Part shown: piece after piece, positions 143 through 60,876 of the stretch
How positions within the stretch are numbered: position 1 is the first letter of the stretch
How the letters are laid out: each line of letters opens with the position of its first letter
NCBI GenBank assembly: GCA_041476105.1
Contig: JBGOSS010000001.1
Span: 16,297-80,296, forward strand
Direction: 5' to 3'
DNA length: 64,000 nt
Source: Gemmatimonadota bacterium
GTDB lineage: Bacteria > Gemmatimonadota > Gemmatimonadetes > Gemmatimonadales > JACORV01
The notes under the pieces: model-generated
Databases searched by the model: none
Told to the model about the DNA's origin: nothing
The model's input: the letters and a program-made list of their open reading frames with translations, nothing else
Translations under genes and position numbers: made by a program

Positions 143-786
143 CGGTCGAGGGCGTTGATCTTGTCGACGCGGGGCTGGTGGCGTCCGCCGCCGAACGCCG
201 TGGTGAGGAAGGTCTTGACGATGTCGGTGGCGAGGCGCTGGCCGATCAGCGTGCCGCCCAGGGTCAGGACGTTGGCGTCGTTGTGCTCGCGGGCATTGGC
301 CGCGGTGGTGAGATCGTAGCACAGCGCGGCGCGCACGCCGGGAATCTTGTTGGCCGCCATCGCGCTGCCGATCCCGGCGCCGTCCACCATGATCCCGAGG
401 GAGGCCCGGCCCTCCGCGACGGCGCGCGCCACGGCGACCGCGAAGTCGGGATAGTCCACCGCCTCGGTGGAGTGCGTGCCCAGGTCGAGCACCTCGCAGC
501 CCAATTCACTCAGCAGCTTCCTGAGGGCTTCCTTCATCGGGAAGCCACCGTGGTCGGACCCGAGGGCAACGACGGTGCGTGGTGCGTGGTGCGTAGTGCG
601 TGGTACCTCGTGCGCCGGTGCCCCGGTCCCCCGGTGCCTCGGTGCCTCGGTCACCAGCGCCACCCCCAGCTGCTTCGCCAGGTCGCGCGCCGCCGGCGTC
701 ACCACGGCACCCCTGGGCAGCGCCACGCTCCGGCCGCTTCCGGCGGCGGCGCGGACATCGGCCTCCGTCACGGCGCGGTGCGTCAT
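139..786 (-). CDS. rpiB: Ribose-5-phosphate isomerase B with extra N-terminal domain
   Basis: GSDHGG, VDYPDFA, DGAGIGSAMAANK, AREHNDANVL, FGGGRH motifs of the RpiB/LacAB family. Confidence 0.92.
   Translation of the reverse strand: MTHRAVTEADVRAAAGSGRSVALPRGAVVTPAARDLAKQLGVALVTEAPRHRGTGAPAHEVPRTTHHAPRTVVALGSDHGGFPMKEALRKLLSELGCEVLDLGTHSTEAVDYPDFAVAVARAVAEGRASLGIMVDGAGIGSAMAANKIPGVRAALCYDLTTAANAREHNDANVLTLGGTLIGQRLATDIVKTFLTTAFGGGRHQPRVDKINALDR
574..651. repeat. Heptamer (GGTGCGT)x4 plus octamer (CGGTGCCY-like)x4 tandem arrays in frame in rpiB
   Basis: Units read directly at 574-601 and 616-647; they encode the linker TEAPRHRGTGAPAHEVPRTTHHAPRT. Confidence 0.85.
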
Positions 787-1448
787 CTCGGCTGCGGCAC
801 GATGACGATGTGCCCGAAGTGATACAGCTGCTGGATGGTGTAGCGGTCGTCGGTGCTCAGCACCCGTCGCCTCGGCCTCACGAACATGAGATCGACGGGG
901 TTGGGGCTATGGGAAAAGAGCCCGAGCGTGTGGCCGATTTCGTGGGCCGTGACGAAGTGGTAGCACCCGCTGACCGCGACCGTGTCGGGGTTCTGCGGCG
1001 CGACGTAGGCCCGCACCGGCCGCTCGAGCCGATTCAGGCTGTCGAGCGCGATGTCGGTGCGCCCGATGCACGCCCCGACCGAGTCGGCGAATACCACGGT
1101 ACTCCCCGTGGTGAGCGGCGGCAGCAGCGCCGGGTTGCGAATGATGACGTCGGCGGTCGTCGAGTCGGTCACCCGTTGCACCGACAGCTCCCCGCAGTGG
1201 AAGGCGTTCAGCCACAGCACCAGCCCGCTGTCCACGTTGGCCTGGAGCGCGCCGACCGGCTCGGCGTAGTAGCGCACCGGATAGTACGAGCCCGGCCAGC
1301 GGAAGATGACGGTGGAGTCTCCCGGAGCGGCCACTGGGTAGACAGCGCCACTGTCCTCGAAGCAGGCCGAGCTGCCCGCGTCGTGGCACGCGACGGCCGC
1401 GAGCACCGCCGCGCCGTAGAGGCCGATCGCCGTCAGCGCGCGACGCAT
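783..1448 (-). CDS. Matrixin/metzincin-family zinc metalloprotease, probable lipoprotein
   Basis: HEIGHTLGLFSHS zinc motif followed by Met-turn (DLMF); lipobox-like LAAVAC; start placed at ATG 1448. Confidence 0.8.
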   Translation of the reverse strand: MRRALTAIGLYGAAVLAAVACHDAGSSACFEDSGAVYPVAAPGDSTVIFRWPGSYYPVRYYAEPVGALQANVDSGLVLWLNAFHCGELSVQRVTDSTTADVIIRNPALLPPLTTGSTVVFADSVGACIGRTDIALDSLNRLERPVRAYVAPQNPDTVAVSGCYHFVTAHEIGHTLGLFSHSPNPVDLMFVRPRRRVLSTDDRYTIQQLYHFGHIVIVPQPR

Positions 1449-1479
1449 GAGCCAACGTAGCTCGGCCGGCAACGGTGTG

Positions 1480-2310
1480 TCAGGCCGCGGCCCGTTCCGG
1501 GATCAGCCGCCGGACGGCGCCCGCGGCCATCAGCACGACACCGTAGCTGCATACGATGGTCGGGCCGGTCGGCAGGTCGGAGCGGTACGAGACCACCAGT
1601 CCCAGCGCGGAGGCGAGCGCGCCGGTGCCGAACGCGATGAGCGTCAGCTTGCCCGGGCTGCGCGTGAAGAGGAACGCCGTCACGGCGGGCACGACCAGGA
1701 AGCTGAACACCAGCAGGACGCCGCCCAGCGGAACCGAGAAGGTGATGACGACGCCGAAGATGGTATAAAAGCAGAAGTCCCACAGCCGCAGGCGCCAGCC
1801 CAGTGCCGCCGCGGCCGCGGCGTTGAAGGAAATGGTTTGGAAGCGGTAGCGGAGGGCGAAGAGCGCGGCCCCCAGGACGGCGTAGGCGGCGGCCAGCTTG
1901 CCGATGGTCGGCCAGGTGACCCAGAGGATGGTGCCGACCAGCACGTCCTTGATCGCGTCGGCCCCGCGCGGCGCCTTGTCGGCGACCAGCAGCGCGGCGG
2001 CCGAAGCCACGACGTAGACGATGCCGATGATCGCTTCCTGCGGGACGCGGCCCTTCTCGTGGGTGCGGGTCGCGGCGAACAACGCGGCGCCGAGCACCAC
2101 GAAGCCCAGGGCGAAGAGCTGCGCGGTGCCGGAGCCCGGCGCCACGCCCACCAGCAGGCCGGTGGTCGTCCCCAGCGCGGCCATCTGCGCCAGCGACAGG
2201 TCGACGAAGATCACCTCGCGCGCGATGACGTGCAGGCCCAGGTAGGAGTGGATCGCCACCAGGATCATGCACGCCACGAAGGGCGGCAGCATCAGCTCCA
2301 GGCCGCTCAT
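1480..2310 (-). CDS. Metal (Zn/Mn) ABC transporter permease, ABC-3 family
   Basis: Polytopic; GLHVIAREVIFVDLSLAQMAALG and GVLLVFSFLVVPA motifs. Confidence 0.88.
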   Translation of the reverse strand: MSGLELMLPPFVACMILVAIHSYLGLHVIAREVIFVDLSLAQMAALGTTTGLLVGVAPGSGTAQLFALGFVVLGAALFAATRTHEKGRVPQEAIIGIVYVVASAAALLVADKAPRGADAIKDVLVGTILWVTWPTIGKLAAAYAVLGAALFALRYRFQTISFNAAAAAALGWRLRLWDFCFYTIFGVVITFSVPLGGVLLVFSFLVVPAVTAFLFTRSPGKLTLIAFGTGALASALGLVVSYRSDLPTGPTIVCSYGVVLMAAGAVRRLIPERAAA

Positions 2311-59635: not shown

Positions 59636-60367
59636 TCACGAGGAAGCAAGTGCGTCGTCATTGCTCCGCCCAAGCGACAGGACGACCGATCGCACGTACC
59701 CAAAGGGCGGTAGATGGCTGGTGTTGGCTCGGCGCAACCCGTCGAGCGCTGCAAGCAGGTGCGCACGCCATGACGGAGGAATCTTCTCAGCACCTGCCGA
59801 CAGAATCACTTCATAGAGACCCGCTCTGTAGGGCACCAATCCTGAACTCTGACGTACCGCCAAGACTCGCACAACAGCCTGATGGAGTTGCTCTGGGCTG
59901 ATTGTCTTGCTGGGCAAGAGTACGGTGTCATACGGATGGCTCGTCGGGTGCCGGAATAGCGTGGCCCGCATCTCCGACACCGGTGCGTCTGTCGCCCGAT
60001 CTCGAACCGCCAGTAGCATTGGAAGCCTCTCTAGAGATGGGCTCCTGCTGCGCGACTGAAGGTCGGCAGTTACAGAGTCGCTTCTGCCGTACAGACGTGC
60101 AATGGCCGCCGCGACGACCATGTCTGAAGAGTCAAGGTGTGCGGCAATTGCCGCATCCATCGTCGGCCCGGGGCCCTGAGCCGGAAGTGGCCCTTCCAAA
60201 GCGCGAAGCACGATGTCCTTCGCGCTCGGGGGCAGCAGGGCTAGGATTTCCACTAACGCGGACCGATCAAGGCCATCCGGAATCCGCGCTTCCCGGCCAT
60301 CGGAGAGACGAAACACATGCTGGGGGTCATAGCCAGATTCGCCGGGCTCAGGGGAGGGCGGCCTCAA
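59636..60367 (-). CDS. Hypothetical protein, apparent paralog of 58789-59499 (no signal peptide, possibly 5'-eroded)
   Basis: Colinear similarity blocks to the lipoprotein visible by eye. Confidence 0.6.
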   Translation of the reverse strand: MRPPSPEPGESGYDPQHVFRLSDGREARIPDGLDRSALVEILALLPPSAKDIVLRALEGPLPAQGPGPTMDAAIAAHLDSSDMVVAAAIARLYGRSDSVTADLQSRSRSPSLERLPMLLAVRDRATDAPVSEMRATLFRHPTSHPYDTVLLPSKTISPEQLHQAVVRVLAVRQSSGLVPYRAGLYEVILSAGAEKIPPSWRAHLLAALDGLRRANTSHLPPFGYVRSVVLSLGRSNDDALASS

Positions 60368-60564
60368 CGCGCGTGCGAGCGCAGGTCAGCATGCGCCTTC
60401 ATTTCAGCCTGCGCAGTGGCCGATAGGACCCGTCCTCGGCGGTTCACCGCCTGGCGGTACGAACGGGTGAGGGTCTGTACCGAGTCCAGCAGTCTCATTC
60501 TGACATTCACCATAGCGTACTGTCGAAAACCAGACAACCGTGGCAAATGCCTAGCCGTCGCTCG

Positions 60565-60797
60565 GACCCCACCGCGCACTTCCGGCCCCAGGTGGACGGC
60601 GACCTGGTCGAGGACGGCGTCTGCGCCGTGCTCATCGCCGAGAAGCTCGGCCTGAGCCAGCCGACCCTCAGCGAGCACATGCGGGTCTTCACCCAGGCGG
60701 GGCTGGTGCGGGGCAAGAAGATCAAGCAGTGGACCTCCACAAGCGCGACGAAAAGCGCATCCGGGAGGTCAAGCGGGCCATCGCCGGGCAGGTCTTG
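60565..60797 (+). pseudogene. 5'-truncated, frameshifted ArsR/SmtB-family regulator
   Basis: DPTAHF...GVCAVLIAEKLGLSQPTLSEHMRV...GLV...KQWT, then a 1-nt shift into HKRDEKRIRE. Confidence 0.75.
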
Positions 60798-60876
60798 TTT
60801 GCCTTCAGCCTTCGGCCTTCAGCCTTCAGCCATTTGACAATCCTCCCCGCCCGCCCGTAGCGTGCCAACCATGACG
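60794..60876 (+). repeat. 83-bp direct repeat, right copy; promoter and start of the kinase gene
   Basis: TTGACA 60834-60839, TAGCGT 60858-60863, ATG 60871. Confidence 0.95.

Follow-up and report, generated by a model that had tools for sequence, protein, structure and literature searches.

Tandem arrays with units of 7 or 8 nt are already described in Geobacter, Xanthomonas, Nostoc and the Coxiella IVS. The 23S rRNA IVS of Coxiella burnetii includes an S23p ORF and a 28-bp stem with tandem heptamers (GACAGAT); the heptamer number varies between strains, the stem is cut by RNase III, and the IVS is considered a selfish element gained by horizontal transfer (Warrier et al., 2016; PMC4990558). 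In Geobacter metallireducens, arrays of four to five tandem units, each 7 or 8 nt long, are reported to fall into several classes; many are paired on opposite strands around a loop, and one class (four GGGACCG units) is present at 49 sites, intergenic as well as intragenic (Aklujkar et al., 2009; PMC2700814). The G-rich heptamer SSRs of Xanthomonas (GGGAATC) and Nostoc are distributed genome-wide, are rarer in coding sequence and preferentially have about four units; sense-strand copies lie no more than 50 bp from stop codons, and antisense-strand copies lie upstream (Rehm et al., 2015; PMC4692102).

The window analyzed here is a 64,000-nucleotide stretch of the genome of a member of the Gemmatimonadota, a soil bacterium. 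About 320 short arrays with 7- or 8-nt units constitute one genome-wide population to which eight loci in the window belong, and the inverted arms of this genome's cassettes carrying a gene of the PF05635 family (23S-rRNA-IVS-protein/Avd family; hereafter IVP) are built from these very sequence elements. IVP is a small, widespread gene of uncharacterized role that is bracketed by these repeats, and the link between the two may help to explain why 7-base repeats are common in bacteria.

Arrays in the window and their coding context

A preliminary description of the window listed at least eight loci with tandem 7- or 8-mers, and TRF analysis confirms all eight. Two different direct arrays on the minus strand, GGTGCGT (574–604; 4.4 copies) and the 8-mer GTGCCCCG (610–651; 5.2 copies), are both in frame in ORF 139–786(-), within the linker that joins a small N-terminal domain to the RpiB domain (Pfam LacAB_rpiB, residues 73–210 of 215). 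This linker is hypervariable in length and sequence among 14 ortholog loci, and other genomes carry other arrays. No hairpin is predicted at 574–651 (z = -0.44; 64/200 shuffles equally good).

Inverted octamer arms of the GGGGGGAC type (8745–8765, 2.6 copies; 8810–8842, 4.1 copies; minus strand; locus 8745–8843) surround the start codon and signal-peptide region of an M23/EnvC-like peptidase gene and are located directly 3′ of the stop codon (8845) of an ftsX-like gene (Pfam Peptidase_M23 and FtsX). A minus-strand array of CTGTCGA/CTGTCAA heptamers (13036–13122; TRF 13036–13120, 12.1 copies) provides the last 14 codons and the stop (13081) of a PfkB-family gene, as indicated by translation, and occupies the whole gap from this stop to the next gene. 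Within the DUF72 gene 34728–35663(-), the inverted arms GGCTGAA (35211–35245; 5.0 copies) and TTCAGCC (35350–35377; 4.0 copies), also on the minus strand, lie on either side of 104 nt of conserved coding sequence; the Pfam DUF72 match runs unbroken across both arms, and a variant unit in the array avoids an in-frame stop. On the plus strand, inverted heptamer arms of the ACAGTCG family (40675–40705, 4.4 copies; 40732–40760, 4.1 copies; 26-nt spacer) are in frame in a loop of the BatA-N-domain protein encoded by 40088–42007(+) (translation; Pfam BatA).

Five of the loci had been assigned to coding sequence, which holds for the RpiB linker, DUF72 and BatA, all in frame, and for the PfkB tail. 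For the M23 gene, only the downstream arm, in the signal peptide, is certainly coding, and the upstream arm would be coding only with ATG 8852 as the start instead of GTG near 8808. The further proposal that such arrays create new peptide segments is supported by the DUF72 and BatA loops, the RpiB linker, the PfkB tail and the M23 signal peptide.

The remaining loci have other contexts. Intergenic inverted arms, GCTGGTA (54408–54424; 2.4 copies) and ACCAGCC (54479–54507; 4.1 copies; locus 54408–54509, no strand assigned), enclose a bidirectional terminator-like core consisting of an A-tract, a GCCCCGG stem and a T-tract; the neighbors of this element are an AI-2E transporter gene and a small ORF that itself follows typA/bipA. 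Sixteen GCCCCGG-stem cores exist in the genome, most of them having terminator-like A/T tracts; arrays flank seven of the cores on both sides and three on one side. Single plus-strand GCCTTCA arrays are present at 57711–57741 and 60801–60831 (4.4 copies each). Shortly after the latter come a promoter-like TTGACA and the start of a gene for a Ser/Thr kinase (60862–62877; Pfam Pkinase). An 86-nt segment including the 57711 array is 94% identical to 60790–60875, covering the array, TTGACA and ATG (BLAST within the genome); the ATG of the 57711 copy opens a frame of 13 codons only.

A genome-wide population of arrays

In the 4.03-Mb genome (assembly 84% complete; arrays counted as TRF rows with ≥3.5 copies), 257 period-7 arrays were found, compared with 20 and 19 in genomes simulated with composition-matched Markov models of order 1 and order 5, and 100 period-8 arrays, compared with 16 and 18, respectively. 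The suggestion of a genome-wide family is therefore borne out. The associated idea that the units are unrelated is not: a small set of units appears again and again at hundreds of unrelated loci, 142/259 non-GC-rich heptamer arrays equal one of three IVP-arm units, and 184/259 are within one mismatch of them. Of the eight window loci, five have units from AAGGCTG and ACAGTCG, the two most abundant families of the genome. Among octamer arrays, 19/62 match the octamer IVP arm.

Array lengths show no decay but a mode at 30–31 nt (usually four to five units) with a sharp fall at 32–33 nt, and copy number per locus varies from 2.4 to 13. The arrays concentrate at gene ends, and those inside genes survive only in segments that tolerate them, such as a loop, a linker, a tail or a signal peptide. 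Called coding sequence makes up 91.5% of the genome, yet only 67/259 non-GC-rich heptamer arrays are within called genes, and 130/259 are at gene 3′ ends; these location counts are approximate because the gene calls come from our own rough caller. GC-rich period-7 arrays are background-like, with 70/82 within genes.

Inverted pairs and polarity

Neighboring arrays are predominantly inverted (81 pairs inverted, 14 direct and 3 ambiguous), and 114/341 period-7 arrays are paired. Paired arms form stems of 25–35 bp, including a 28-bp stem from the arms at 35211–35377. The four window loci for which hairpins had been anticipated do fold as such when modeled as RNA (z = -5.1 at 8745, -5.5 at 35211, -6.0 at 40675 and -8.1 at 54408), with 0/200 shuffles folding as well. 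Self-folding of the 13036 array (z = -7.9) is due to the palindrome GTCGAC in its unit. The purine-rich arm is located 5′ in 66/70 pairs and in 21/22 unit families. Departures of an arm from its own consensus are compensated in the partner arm in only 33/157 cases, so that copying from arm to arm, if real, would be occasional.

Such hairpins might be RNA structures selected by the host, acting as transcript-end stabilizers, terminators or insulators, or in translational control at some starts, with stems grown by slippage, pairing kept by selection and IVP cassettes only using the structure or hitch-hiking on it. The abundance of arrays at gene 3′ ends is consistent with this, as are the orientations of genes flanking gene-less pairs (31 tandem, 10 convergent and 4 divergent, vs. 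2563, 380 and 385 in the background) and the arms at 10/16 GCCCCGG-stem cores. Also, regulator binding was proposed for the Geobacter arrays (PMC2700814). However, the U-tract is absent from most pairs, the purine-first polarity is left unexplained, as the opposite hairpin would be about equally stable, and stems within conserved enzymes such as DUF72 have no obvious regulatory logic.

Orthologous sites in related genomes

Orthologs were aligned to look for empty sites, as the preliminary description had advised. At the PfkB junction, 8/10 informative relatives have no spacer, the stop abutting or overlapping the next start, and 1/10 carries a short octamer array of another kind. In 6/13 aligned orthologs the BatA loop lacks an insert, and others carry other units. 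The DUF72 loop is empty in 3/16 orthologs; in this 16-ortholog alignment a variable loop is accompanied by an overwritten segment of the same length, the downstream arm replacing native sequence with length unchanged. At the M23 start, 11 informative ortholog loci include six with arms, of differing units, and five with none; this arm architecture is kept across three families of the order while the units change, which would suit a host-selected structure. In addition, IVP-less sites orthologous to three cassettes of this genome lack arms in 7/7 cases.

Where arms are present, their units are typical of the genome. The DUF72 arms consist of GCTGAAR here, GAAAGTY in relative G003 and GTCGACA in relative G006, and G003 re-uses GAAAGTC next to an IVP remnant and in BatA. 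In congeners, then, an orthologous site is either empty or occupied by the unit family typical of that genome, which argues for insertion or replacement and not for local slippage. The nearest genomes have diverged too far (60–89% protein identity in flanking genes) for insertion boundaries to be read, and no insertion event, target duplication or responsible enzyme was observed. From these comparisons we infer that the arrays probably arrive by insertion or replacement.

Slippage surely affects any such array, and the unit number does vary, both among loci here and between strains at the Coxiella heptamers (PMC4990558). As the sole cause, however, slippage is largely refuted, and the explanation of the arrays as ordinary microsatellites, extended in place during replication and paired by chance or palindrome growth, is highly improbable. 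It accounts neither for three unit families covering most heptamer arrays, nor for the 13-fold excess specific to periods 7 and 8, nor for the length mode of 30–31 nt, and it conflicts with the genome-specific units at orthologous sites, the prevalence of inverted neighbors and the fixed polarity. The original view that more than plain slippage is at work is thereby upheld. Empty orthologous sites are common, and few units are re-used at hundreds of unrelated sites; both are also left unexplained by host-selected RNA structures.

Arms of IVP cassettes

A search for co-occurring four-helix-bundle/IVP genes, another early suggestion, was productive. Seven PF05635 matches are present in the genome and 6/7 are enclosed by inverted arms, made of the dominant units of the genome. 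The arm units of the six armed cassettes are ACAGTCG, AAGGCTG, AGCCATC, the 8-mer AAGCCGTC, the 9-mer AGGGGAGAC and, in one case, a complex arm. In the 84%-complete assembly, no IVP cassette matches AGCTGCC (23 arrays), ACCACGC (13 arrays, including that at 574) or the G-rich octamers of 8745.

IVP genes are present in 29/31 genomes of the order. Of 30 IVP loci in relatives, tandem arrays flank 15 on both sides and 11 on one side, and the other 4 have none. Gene-less arrays of relatives match a known IVP arm of their own genome in 8/27 cases, compared with 12/243 for the arms of other genomes. At one orthologous site, the cassettes of this genome and of relative G001 differ in arm units and period (7 vs. 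8), with IVP proteins 52% identical. Across at least 12 phyla, tandem arms border 38 of 78 IVP loci on both sides and a further 8 on a single side; the period is 7 at 38 loci and 8 at 8 loci, with no other period between 5 and 12 found among the 78. The purine-rich arm comes first in 43/52 armed loci. Identical arm units across phyla form 13 pairs, vs. 2.8 expected (maximum 8 in 300 shuffles), and the association between IVP protein and unit is weak (rho = -0.085; 3/2000 permutations). A Xanthomonas locus in this sample has GGGACCG arms.

These results favor the explanation that the gene-less arrays and hairpins are derivatives or trans-dependants of IVP cassettes, a selfish family of IVS-like stem-loop elements, which we regard as somewhat probable. 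Arms drawn from a pre-existing array pool would, however, also tend to carry the commonest units. Host-selected RNA structures alone leave unexplained why the period around IVP genes is 7 or 8 in every phylum sampled, and we consider them rather unlikely as a general explanation; host function is possible at some sites, such as the M23-start arms.

A different origin would be synthesis by a templated polymerase: at breaks or stalled forks it would extend 3′ ends with G/purine-rich repeats, resulting in head-to-head arrays. Candidates would be a telomerase-like or DGR-like reverse transcriptase with an Avd-like IVP protein, or a primase-polymerase. If a purine-rich strand were added at the 3′ end of each flank, exactly the observed polarity would be expected, as would armless empty sites, and a short template would suit both the 7–8-nt period and the narrow spread of array lengths. 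Avd acts together with a reverse transcriptase, and IVP has a weak match to the DGR Avd model (E = 3.6e-6). However, no PF00078 reverse transcriptase was found in the 84%-complete genome, no candidate template RNA was seen (Rfam has no match in the window), and the same-length replacement by the downstream DUF72 arm is not predicted by end addition. Taken together, this origin seems improbable.

REPs are intergenic hairpins at gene ends, as many of the present pairs are, and the preliminary description had named REP tyrosine transposases as possible partners. Two Y1_Tnp genes do exist (contig C50, 13070–13411; contig C32, 7796–8131), but both are flanked by their own 27–40-nt palindromic repeats, unrelated in sequence to any array, and no heptamer array adjoins either gene. 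Movement of REP/BIME-like hairpins by REP-associated tyrosine transposases (RAYT, Y1 family) is therefore the least credible of the explanations. GxxExxY proteins, likewise named, have no counterpart: no GxxExxY/PDDEXK_3 gene was found in the genome.

RNase III and tolerance of long stems

RNase III was not found in this genome and is absent from 5/5 near-complete relatives (TIGR02191 search). It is present in 0/104 genomes of eight families (f1–f8), vs. 15/16 genomes of four others (f9–f12), and appears to have been lost from the clade. In 400 kb each, RNase III-positive genomes contain one array and no pairs, and RNase III-negative genomes 28 arrays and eight pairs, a single phylogenetic contrast that is confounded with GC content (0.50–0.62 vs. 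0.64–0.70) and with IVP presence (1/5 vs. 29/31 genomes). RNase III-negative genomes themselves vary in density between 0 and 17 arrays per 100 kb. The link is weak; loss of RNase III may be the reason that long stems are tolerated in mRNAs of the clade.

A possible pathway of array formation

In the IVP-dependent explanation, arrays would be inserted, or set by templated replacement, through a process tied to the IVP cassette system. The second arm could then be copied from the first at unchanged length, as in the DUF72 coding segment, most simply by strand switching during replication, and the unit number would afterwards drift through slippage. The resulting RNA stems would be stable hairpins at transcript ends or, in the M23 gene, over the start codon, and would be tolerated, even in coding RNA, because of the apparent loss of RNase III, which cleaves comparable stems of rRNA intervening sequences in other organisms.

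Comparison with known systems

Cyanobacterial STRRs are dispersed tandem heptamers of few unit types, with units and hosts that differ from those here. Rickettsia palindromic elements (RPEs) lie in frame inside genes and add peptide segments, as the present arrays do, but are 100–150-bp elements of conserved sequence, not short-unit arrays.

The Xanthomonas and Nostoc SSRs share the polarity rule seen here, but are described as essentially one unit per genome and explained by G-quadruplex formation, and the IVP link is not drawn in the consulted parts of that paper (PMC4692102); the main families here (GCTGAAG, ACAGTCG and GCTGATG) have no G-tracts. The Geobacter genome resembles this one in having multiple 7/8-nt classes, many of them paired. 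Those arrays were read as binding sites of global regulators or as regulatory RNAs, and the relevant portions of the report contain neither an IVP link nor an orthologous-site comparison nor polarity (PMC2700814).

There is also a likeness to the Coxiella IVS, in which a PF05635/S23p four-helix-bundle ORF is in the loop of a ~28-bp terminal-inverted-repeat stem and the 5′ arm contains tandem purine-rich heptamers; the pertinent sections of that paper do not extend heptamer arms to the whole gene family (PMC4990558). The Coxiella IVS is located in rRNA helix 45, is excised by RNase III and has one copy per genome (PMC4990558), whereas RNase III was not found in the present clade, and the cassettes here are located between protein genes and accompanied by hundreds of gene-less arms, some of them in frame in proteins.

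Tandem arrays of seven- and eight-nucleotide units

The tandem 7- and 8-mer arrays that the preliminary description named at eight loci (574-651, 8745-8843, 13036-13122, 35211-35377, 40675-40760, 54408-54509, 57711-57741 and 60801-60831) are all listed by TRF in the window, with 2.4 to 12.1 copies and 78 to 100% match, and their sequences were also read directly. The assembly (G000; 4.03 Mb in 115 contigs, 70% G+C, 84% complete; the window is on contig C1) is rich in such arrays as a whole. TRF rows with at least 3.5 copies reach their maximum at period 7 (257 rows), the numbers for periods 5, 6, 8, 9 and 10 being 48, 128, 100, 90 and 10, respectively. 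In genomes simulated by Markov models built from G000 sequence, period 7 gives 20 rows at order 1 and 19 at order 5, and period 8 gives 16 and 18. Because periods 7 and 8 are thus about 13-fold and 6-fold in excess, their frequency is not that of composition-matched sequence. Merging of overlapping TRF rows leaves 814 arrays of period 6-9, and the observation as a whole is real and highly non-random.

The units had been regarded as unrelated, a claim that does not survive the census. The 355 period-7 rows with at least 3 copies reduce to 76 canonical units, four of which are dominant: ACAGTCG (59 rows), AAGGCTG (50 rows), AGCCATC (38 rows) and AGCTGCC (23 rows). When GACAGTC, GAAGGCT, GATGGCT, GAAAGCT and GAAAGTC are placed in a common register, many families differ, in our reading, by no more than one or two letters. 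GC-rich units such as CCGCGCG are background-like, with 70 of 82 arrays within called genes and a median of 3.5 copies; the real array family is that of the non-GC-rich heptamers, of which only 67/259 arrays lie within called genes and 130/259 at gene 3' ends, as judged by a rough gene caller that marks 91.5% of G000 as coding. The median copy number is 4.3, and the lengths of the non-GC-rich heptamer arrays peak at 30-31 nt (49 arrays), only 8 arrays being 32-33 nt long. This peak is unlike the decay predicted by slippage alone. A preference for four units is also described for Xanthomonas and Nostoc SSRs (Rehm, 2015; PMC4692102).

Inverted pairs and their polarity

Cases of neighbouring arrays with a common unit in G000 comprise 81 inverted, 14 direct and 3 ambiguous ones, and 114/341 period-7 arrays belong to inverted pairs, whereas only 6/189 period-6 arrays do so. 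The four inverted pairs proposed to form hairpins in the window fold with z = -5.1 to -8.1, and none of 200 shuffles folds as well. The array at 13036-13122 folds on itself because its unit holds GTCGAC, and the locus at 574-651 has no fold.

Whichever strand is read, the 5' arm is the purine-rich one in 66/70 inverted pairs and 21/22 unit families, and the purine-rich arm comes first in 43 of the 52 armed IVP loci examined across phyla (IVP, the PF05635 four-helix-bundle 23S-rRNA-IVS protein; see below); in our reading, the Coxiella heptamers obey the same purine-first polarity. Paired arrays at gene 3' ends are G-rich on the sense strand in 45 cases versus C-rich in 10, and unpaired arrays have a weaker bias of the same kind (55 versus 41). 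Hairpin stability does not predict the purine-first polarity. Such a polarity would be expected if a purine-rich strand were added at the 3' end of each flank, though an enzyme for this addition was not found.

Where an arm departs from the repeat consensus, the partner arm has a compensating change in only 33 of 157 cases, and base-by-base correction of arms was dropped as the main force for this reason; the arms seem instead to have been laid down or replaced wholesale. A recurrent composite element consists of an array, an A-tract, a GCCCCGG stem, a T-tract and the inverted array; 10/16 GCCCCGG cores, including that of the window locus 54408-54509, have arms on one or both sides. Among spacers of 25-320 nt, 8/31 have a match at another locus, and all eight share the terminator-like core. 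As most spacers are unique, simple copying of one MITE does not account for the elements, and a MITE-like derivation through shared spacers was rejected.

Association of the arrays with IVP cassettes

Genes for four-helix-bundle proteins had been put forward as possible companions of the arrays, and they are indeed present: G000 has seven PF05635 hits, six of which lie within inverted arms (an IVP gene between such arms is termed a cassette). At four of the six, TRF detects tandem arrays on both sides; the arms of the fifth were identified by sequence reading, and those of the sixth form a 70-nt imperfect inverted repeat. As arm units the cassettes have the three commonest heptamers of the genome, one of its commonest octamers and one 9-mer, and no more than one mismatch separates 184 of the 259 heptamer arrays from one of the three cassette-arm heptamers. 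Two of these units, AAGGCTG (three loci) and ACAGTCG (two loci), account for five of the eight window loci and are the arms of the cassettes on contigs C28 and C75; no G000 cassette matches the units at 574, 8745 and 54408. As none of the seven PF05635 hits is on C1 and the spacers of the window pairs are 26-104 nt, the window loci themselves are not cassettes. At G000:C61:5280-5500, a cassette lies directly beside two apparent tRNA genes on the opposite strand, as read by eye.

IVP genes occur in 29/31 genomes of the order, and 30 order-level IVP loci have tandem arrays on both sides (15 loci), on one side (11) or on neither (4). In named public genomes that span at least 12 phyla, 80 IVP loci were sampled; two have too-short flanks, and the 78 usable loci include 38 with tandem arms on both sides and 8 with an arm on one side. 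The arm period is 7 in 38 of these loci and 8 in 8 loci, and no other period between 5 and 12 is found among them; the array period is therefore a property of the cassette, not of the host. Identical units recur across phyla in 13 pairs versus 2.8 expected from letter-shuffled units, and IVP proteins whose units are similar also resemble one another slightly more (3/2000 permutations), which is a weak effect. Strict protein-to-unit specificity was dropped because this association is weak and one orthologous site has different arms. The closest solved relative is XCC0516 of Xanthomonas (2gsc, E 6e-37), a homopentameric toroid according to the Coxiella paper (PMC4990558).

Probable insertion and re-use of sites

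At IVP-less orthologous sites of the C28, C12 and C21 cassettes in congeners, arms are absent in 7/7 cases. The C28 site in the related genome G001 has a cassette with octamer arms, the IVP being 52% identical and the flanking gene 76% identical, and in another relative, G003, an array of that genome's own typical unit lies beside an IVP remnant. From the arm-free sites and these two cases, we infer that cassettes insert together with their arms rather than homing into old hairpins, and that sites are re-used. In relatives, a gene-less array matches a known IVP arm of its own genome in 8/27 cases and the arms of other genomes in 12/243, in a small sample whose members are kin and not independent. 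The preliminary description had proposed an active mechanism of writing or insertion: insertion or replacement is supported, and an active writer is a hypothesis.

The reading that we consider best, and to which we give somewhat better than even chances, is that the arrays would represent an IVS-like selfish element family tied to IVP cassettes. That they are instead elements with a host function appears improbable to us.

Arrays within genes and at orthologous sites

The DUF72 gene contains both arms of the pair at 35211-35377, and the intervening 104 nt encode conserved DUF72 sequence. The upstream arm corresponds to a variable-length loop in 16 orthologs, three of which have no insert, and the downstream arm to a constant-length segment whose sequence has been overwritten. 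The arm units are GCTGAAR in G000, GAAAGTY in G003 and GTCGACA in G006, and the arms are complementary in each; in other genomes, the loop has G-rich arrays without a partner arm. The G000 unit that would otherwise give an in-frame TGA reads TCA. In the BatA-N protein, an entire hairpin of 27 codons (40675-40760) is accommodated in one loop. In G006 this loop likewise contains a hairpin, built from the same unit family; G003 has four copies of CTTTCGA, three further genomes have other arrays, one has a non-periodic insert and 6/13 have no insert (the partial locus L027 was left out of the alignment).

In the family of genomes to which G000 belongs, RpiB has a hypervariable linker in addition to a small N-terminal domain. 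This linker, which in G000 holds the locus 574-651, is filled by arrays whose units differ from genome to genome and which reach 17.5 octamers in G008. The N-terminal domain, conserved and about 40 residues long (VTEADVRAA...VVTPAARDLAKQLGV; gene at 139-786 of the window, minus strand; loci L031-L042), has no Pfam match and is absent from RpiB of the order's two other families. The frames of DUF72, BatA and RpiB are open across the arrays and their Pfam domains are intact.

Arrays are also found at gene junctions; L076 and L093, truncated at contig ends, were left out of the junction counts, and L097 is unclear. The stop codon of the PfkB-family gene abuts or overlaps the next start in 8/10 informative relatives, whereas in G000 the 87-nt array (13036-13122) provides a new 14-residue tail and stop; G001 has a short octamer array of a different unit. 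The overlap with the following HATPase-domain gene, as GTGA or by abutment (window 13030-13085; L088-L098), suggests possible translational coupling in relatives, and the array separates the two genes in G000. The M23/EnvC-like gene has arms around the start codon and signal-peptide region (8745-8843 in G000) in 6/11 informative loci from three families of the order, with the units GGGGGAC, GGGGAAC, GGCACGG, GGGCACG, GGGGAAG and one 12-mer; the other 5/11 have an overlapping stop and start and no arms.

The arrays thus lie in frame in loops, linkers, a tail and a signal peptide, as anticipated by the proposal that they create new peptide segments, and orthologs at the sites compared do not share the same peptides without DNA periodicity. 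The in-frame arrays are a steady source of new peptide segments in loops, linkers and signal peptides.

Inverted arms around a conserved in-frame coding segment are also present at G000:C24:12573-12812 and G000:C29:22180-22434, where the frames between the arms are, as we take them by eye, MurG-like and MutS2-linker-like. A duplication links window positions 57700-57790 and 60790-60880, where an 86-nt segment comprising an array, a TTGACA box, a TAGCGT-like box and an ATG is repeated with 94% identity. One copy heads a Ser/Thr kinase gene; since no more than 13 codons follow the other, it looks like a duplicated promoter and start region.

Other candidate partners and RNase III

Among other enzymes that might act on the arrays, reverse transcriptase (PF00078) was not found in G000 (84% complete), and GxxExxY proteins, previously suggested as companions, are not represented by any PF13366 (PDDEXK_3) match in this genome. 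REP tyrosine transposases, suggested likewise, fare no better: the two RAYT-like Y1_Tnp genes, at G000:C50:12800-14300 and G000:C32:7300-8700, each lie between their own REP-like palindromes, which are unrelated to the arrays and constitute a second repeat system. A 27-nt-period array at C50:12803-12925 is an example of these RAYT-linked repeats. No Rfam family reaches gathering score within the 64-kb window.

RNase III processing of the stems was a first idea for their function; as searches did not find the enzyme, the idea was dropped for this clade. G000 has no PF14622 or PF00636 match, a tblastn search of it with the sole RNase III match of the order, which lies on a 1,521-bp contig of G007, gives a best E of 0.97, and TIGR02191 has no match in 5/5 genomes of 98-100% completeness. 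Across 121 sampled genomes of the phylum, RNase III was found in 0/104 genomes of families f1-f8 versus 15/16 of f9-f12. RNase III therefore appears to have been lost across a class-level clade, coincident with abundant long stems; a statement of this loss was not found in the openly searchable part of the literature. In 400 kb sampled from RNase III-positive genomes there are one array and no inverted pairs, with IVP in 1/5 genomes, whereas 400 kb from RNase III-negative genomes of the order contain 28 arrays and 8 inverted pairs, with IVP in 29/31 genomes. This suggests that RNase III loss lowered the cost of long mRNA stems, as one phylogenetic contrast that is confounded with G+C content. 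The loss also bears on rRNA maturation and mRNA degradation in these bacteria.

IVP as a possible trans-acting partner

A broader and rather unlikely proposal is that heptamer arrays throughout the bacteria have pentameric IVP as their trans-acting partner. One 7-8-nt unit would be recognised per protomer, which would explain the array length of 4-5 units, and IVP together with host polymerase would cause arrays to be inserted or copied; its non-autonomous sites would be the hundreds of arrays that lack a gene. The long-noted heptamer excess of bacteria would then be the footprint of one cassette family, which in Gemmatimonadales would have invaded operons and coding sequence after RNase III loss had removed the cost of long stems. 

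The arrays bring together two older puzzles, the role of rRNA intervening-sequence proteins and the over-representation of heptamers in many bacterial genomes, the latter being without detailed study according to Rehm (2015; PMC4692102). Array length, period and polarity may be set by a cassette system, not by slippage.

Comparison with known systems

With the Coxiella-IVS-like cassettes, the window loci share inverted arms of 7-8-nt arrays but lack a PF05635 gene between them; the Coxiella IVS stem, which has an S23p ORF, is described as containing tandem GACAGAT heptamers whose number varies between strains (PMC4990558). Paired arrays of hepta- and octanucleotides that fall into several classes and are in part intragenic are described for Geobacter metallireducens (PMC2700814), and G000 is alike in 4-5 units, several unit classes, opposite-strand pairs, and intergenic as well as intragenic sites. 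Xanthomonas and Nostoc have G-rich heptamers near stop codons (Rehm, 2015; PMC4692102). G000 resembles these G-quadruplex SSRs in the preference for about four units and the G-rich sense strand by stop codons, but a GGG run is absent from its dominant units GCTGAAG, ACAGTCG and GCTGATG and occurs only in minority octamers such as GGGGGGAC at 8745-8843. Unlike REP/BIME with RAYT, the G000 hairpins are not those that flank the Y1 genes, which have other palindromes. Rickettsia-type in-frame elements (RPEs) are similar in behaviour only, as RPE sequence is conserved and that of the G000 elements is not. The STRR heptamers of cyanobacteria are a further known analogue.

Given the Geobacter, Xanthomonas/Nostoc and Coxiella descriptions, the array class is already known. 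In the open literature, supplementary files aside, no paper was found that links PF05635 genes generally to heptamer arrays, the single-locus description in Coxiella excepted. What G000 adds is the quantitative tie of gene-less arrays to cassette arms, the evidence from empty sites and site re-use, including a coding segment overwritten without change in length, the polarity rule and the RNase III pattern.
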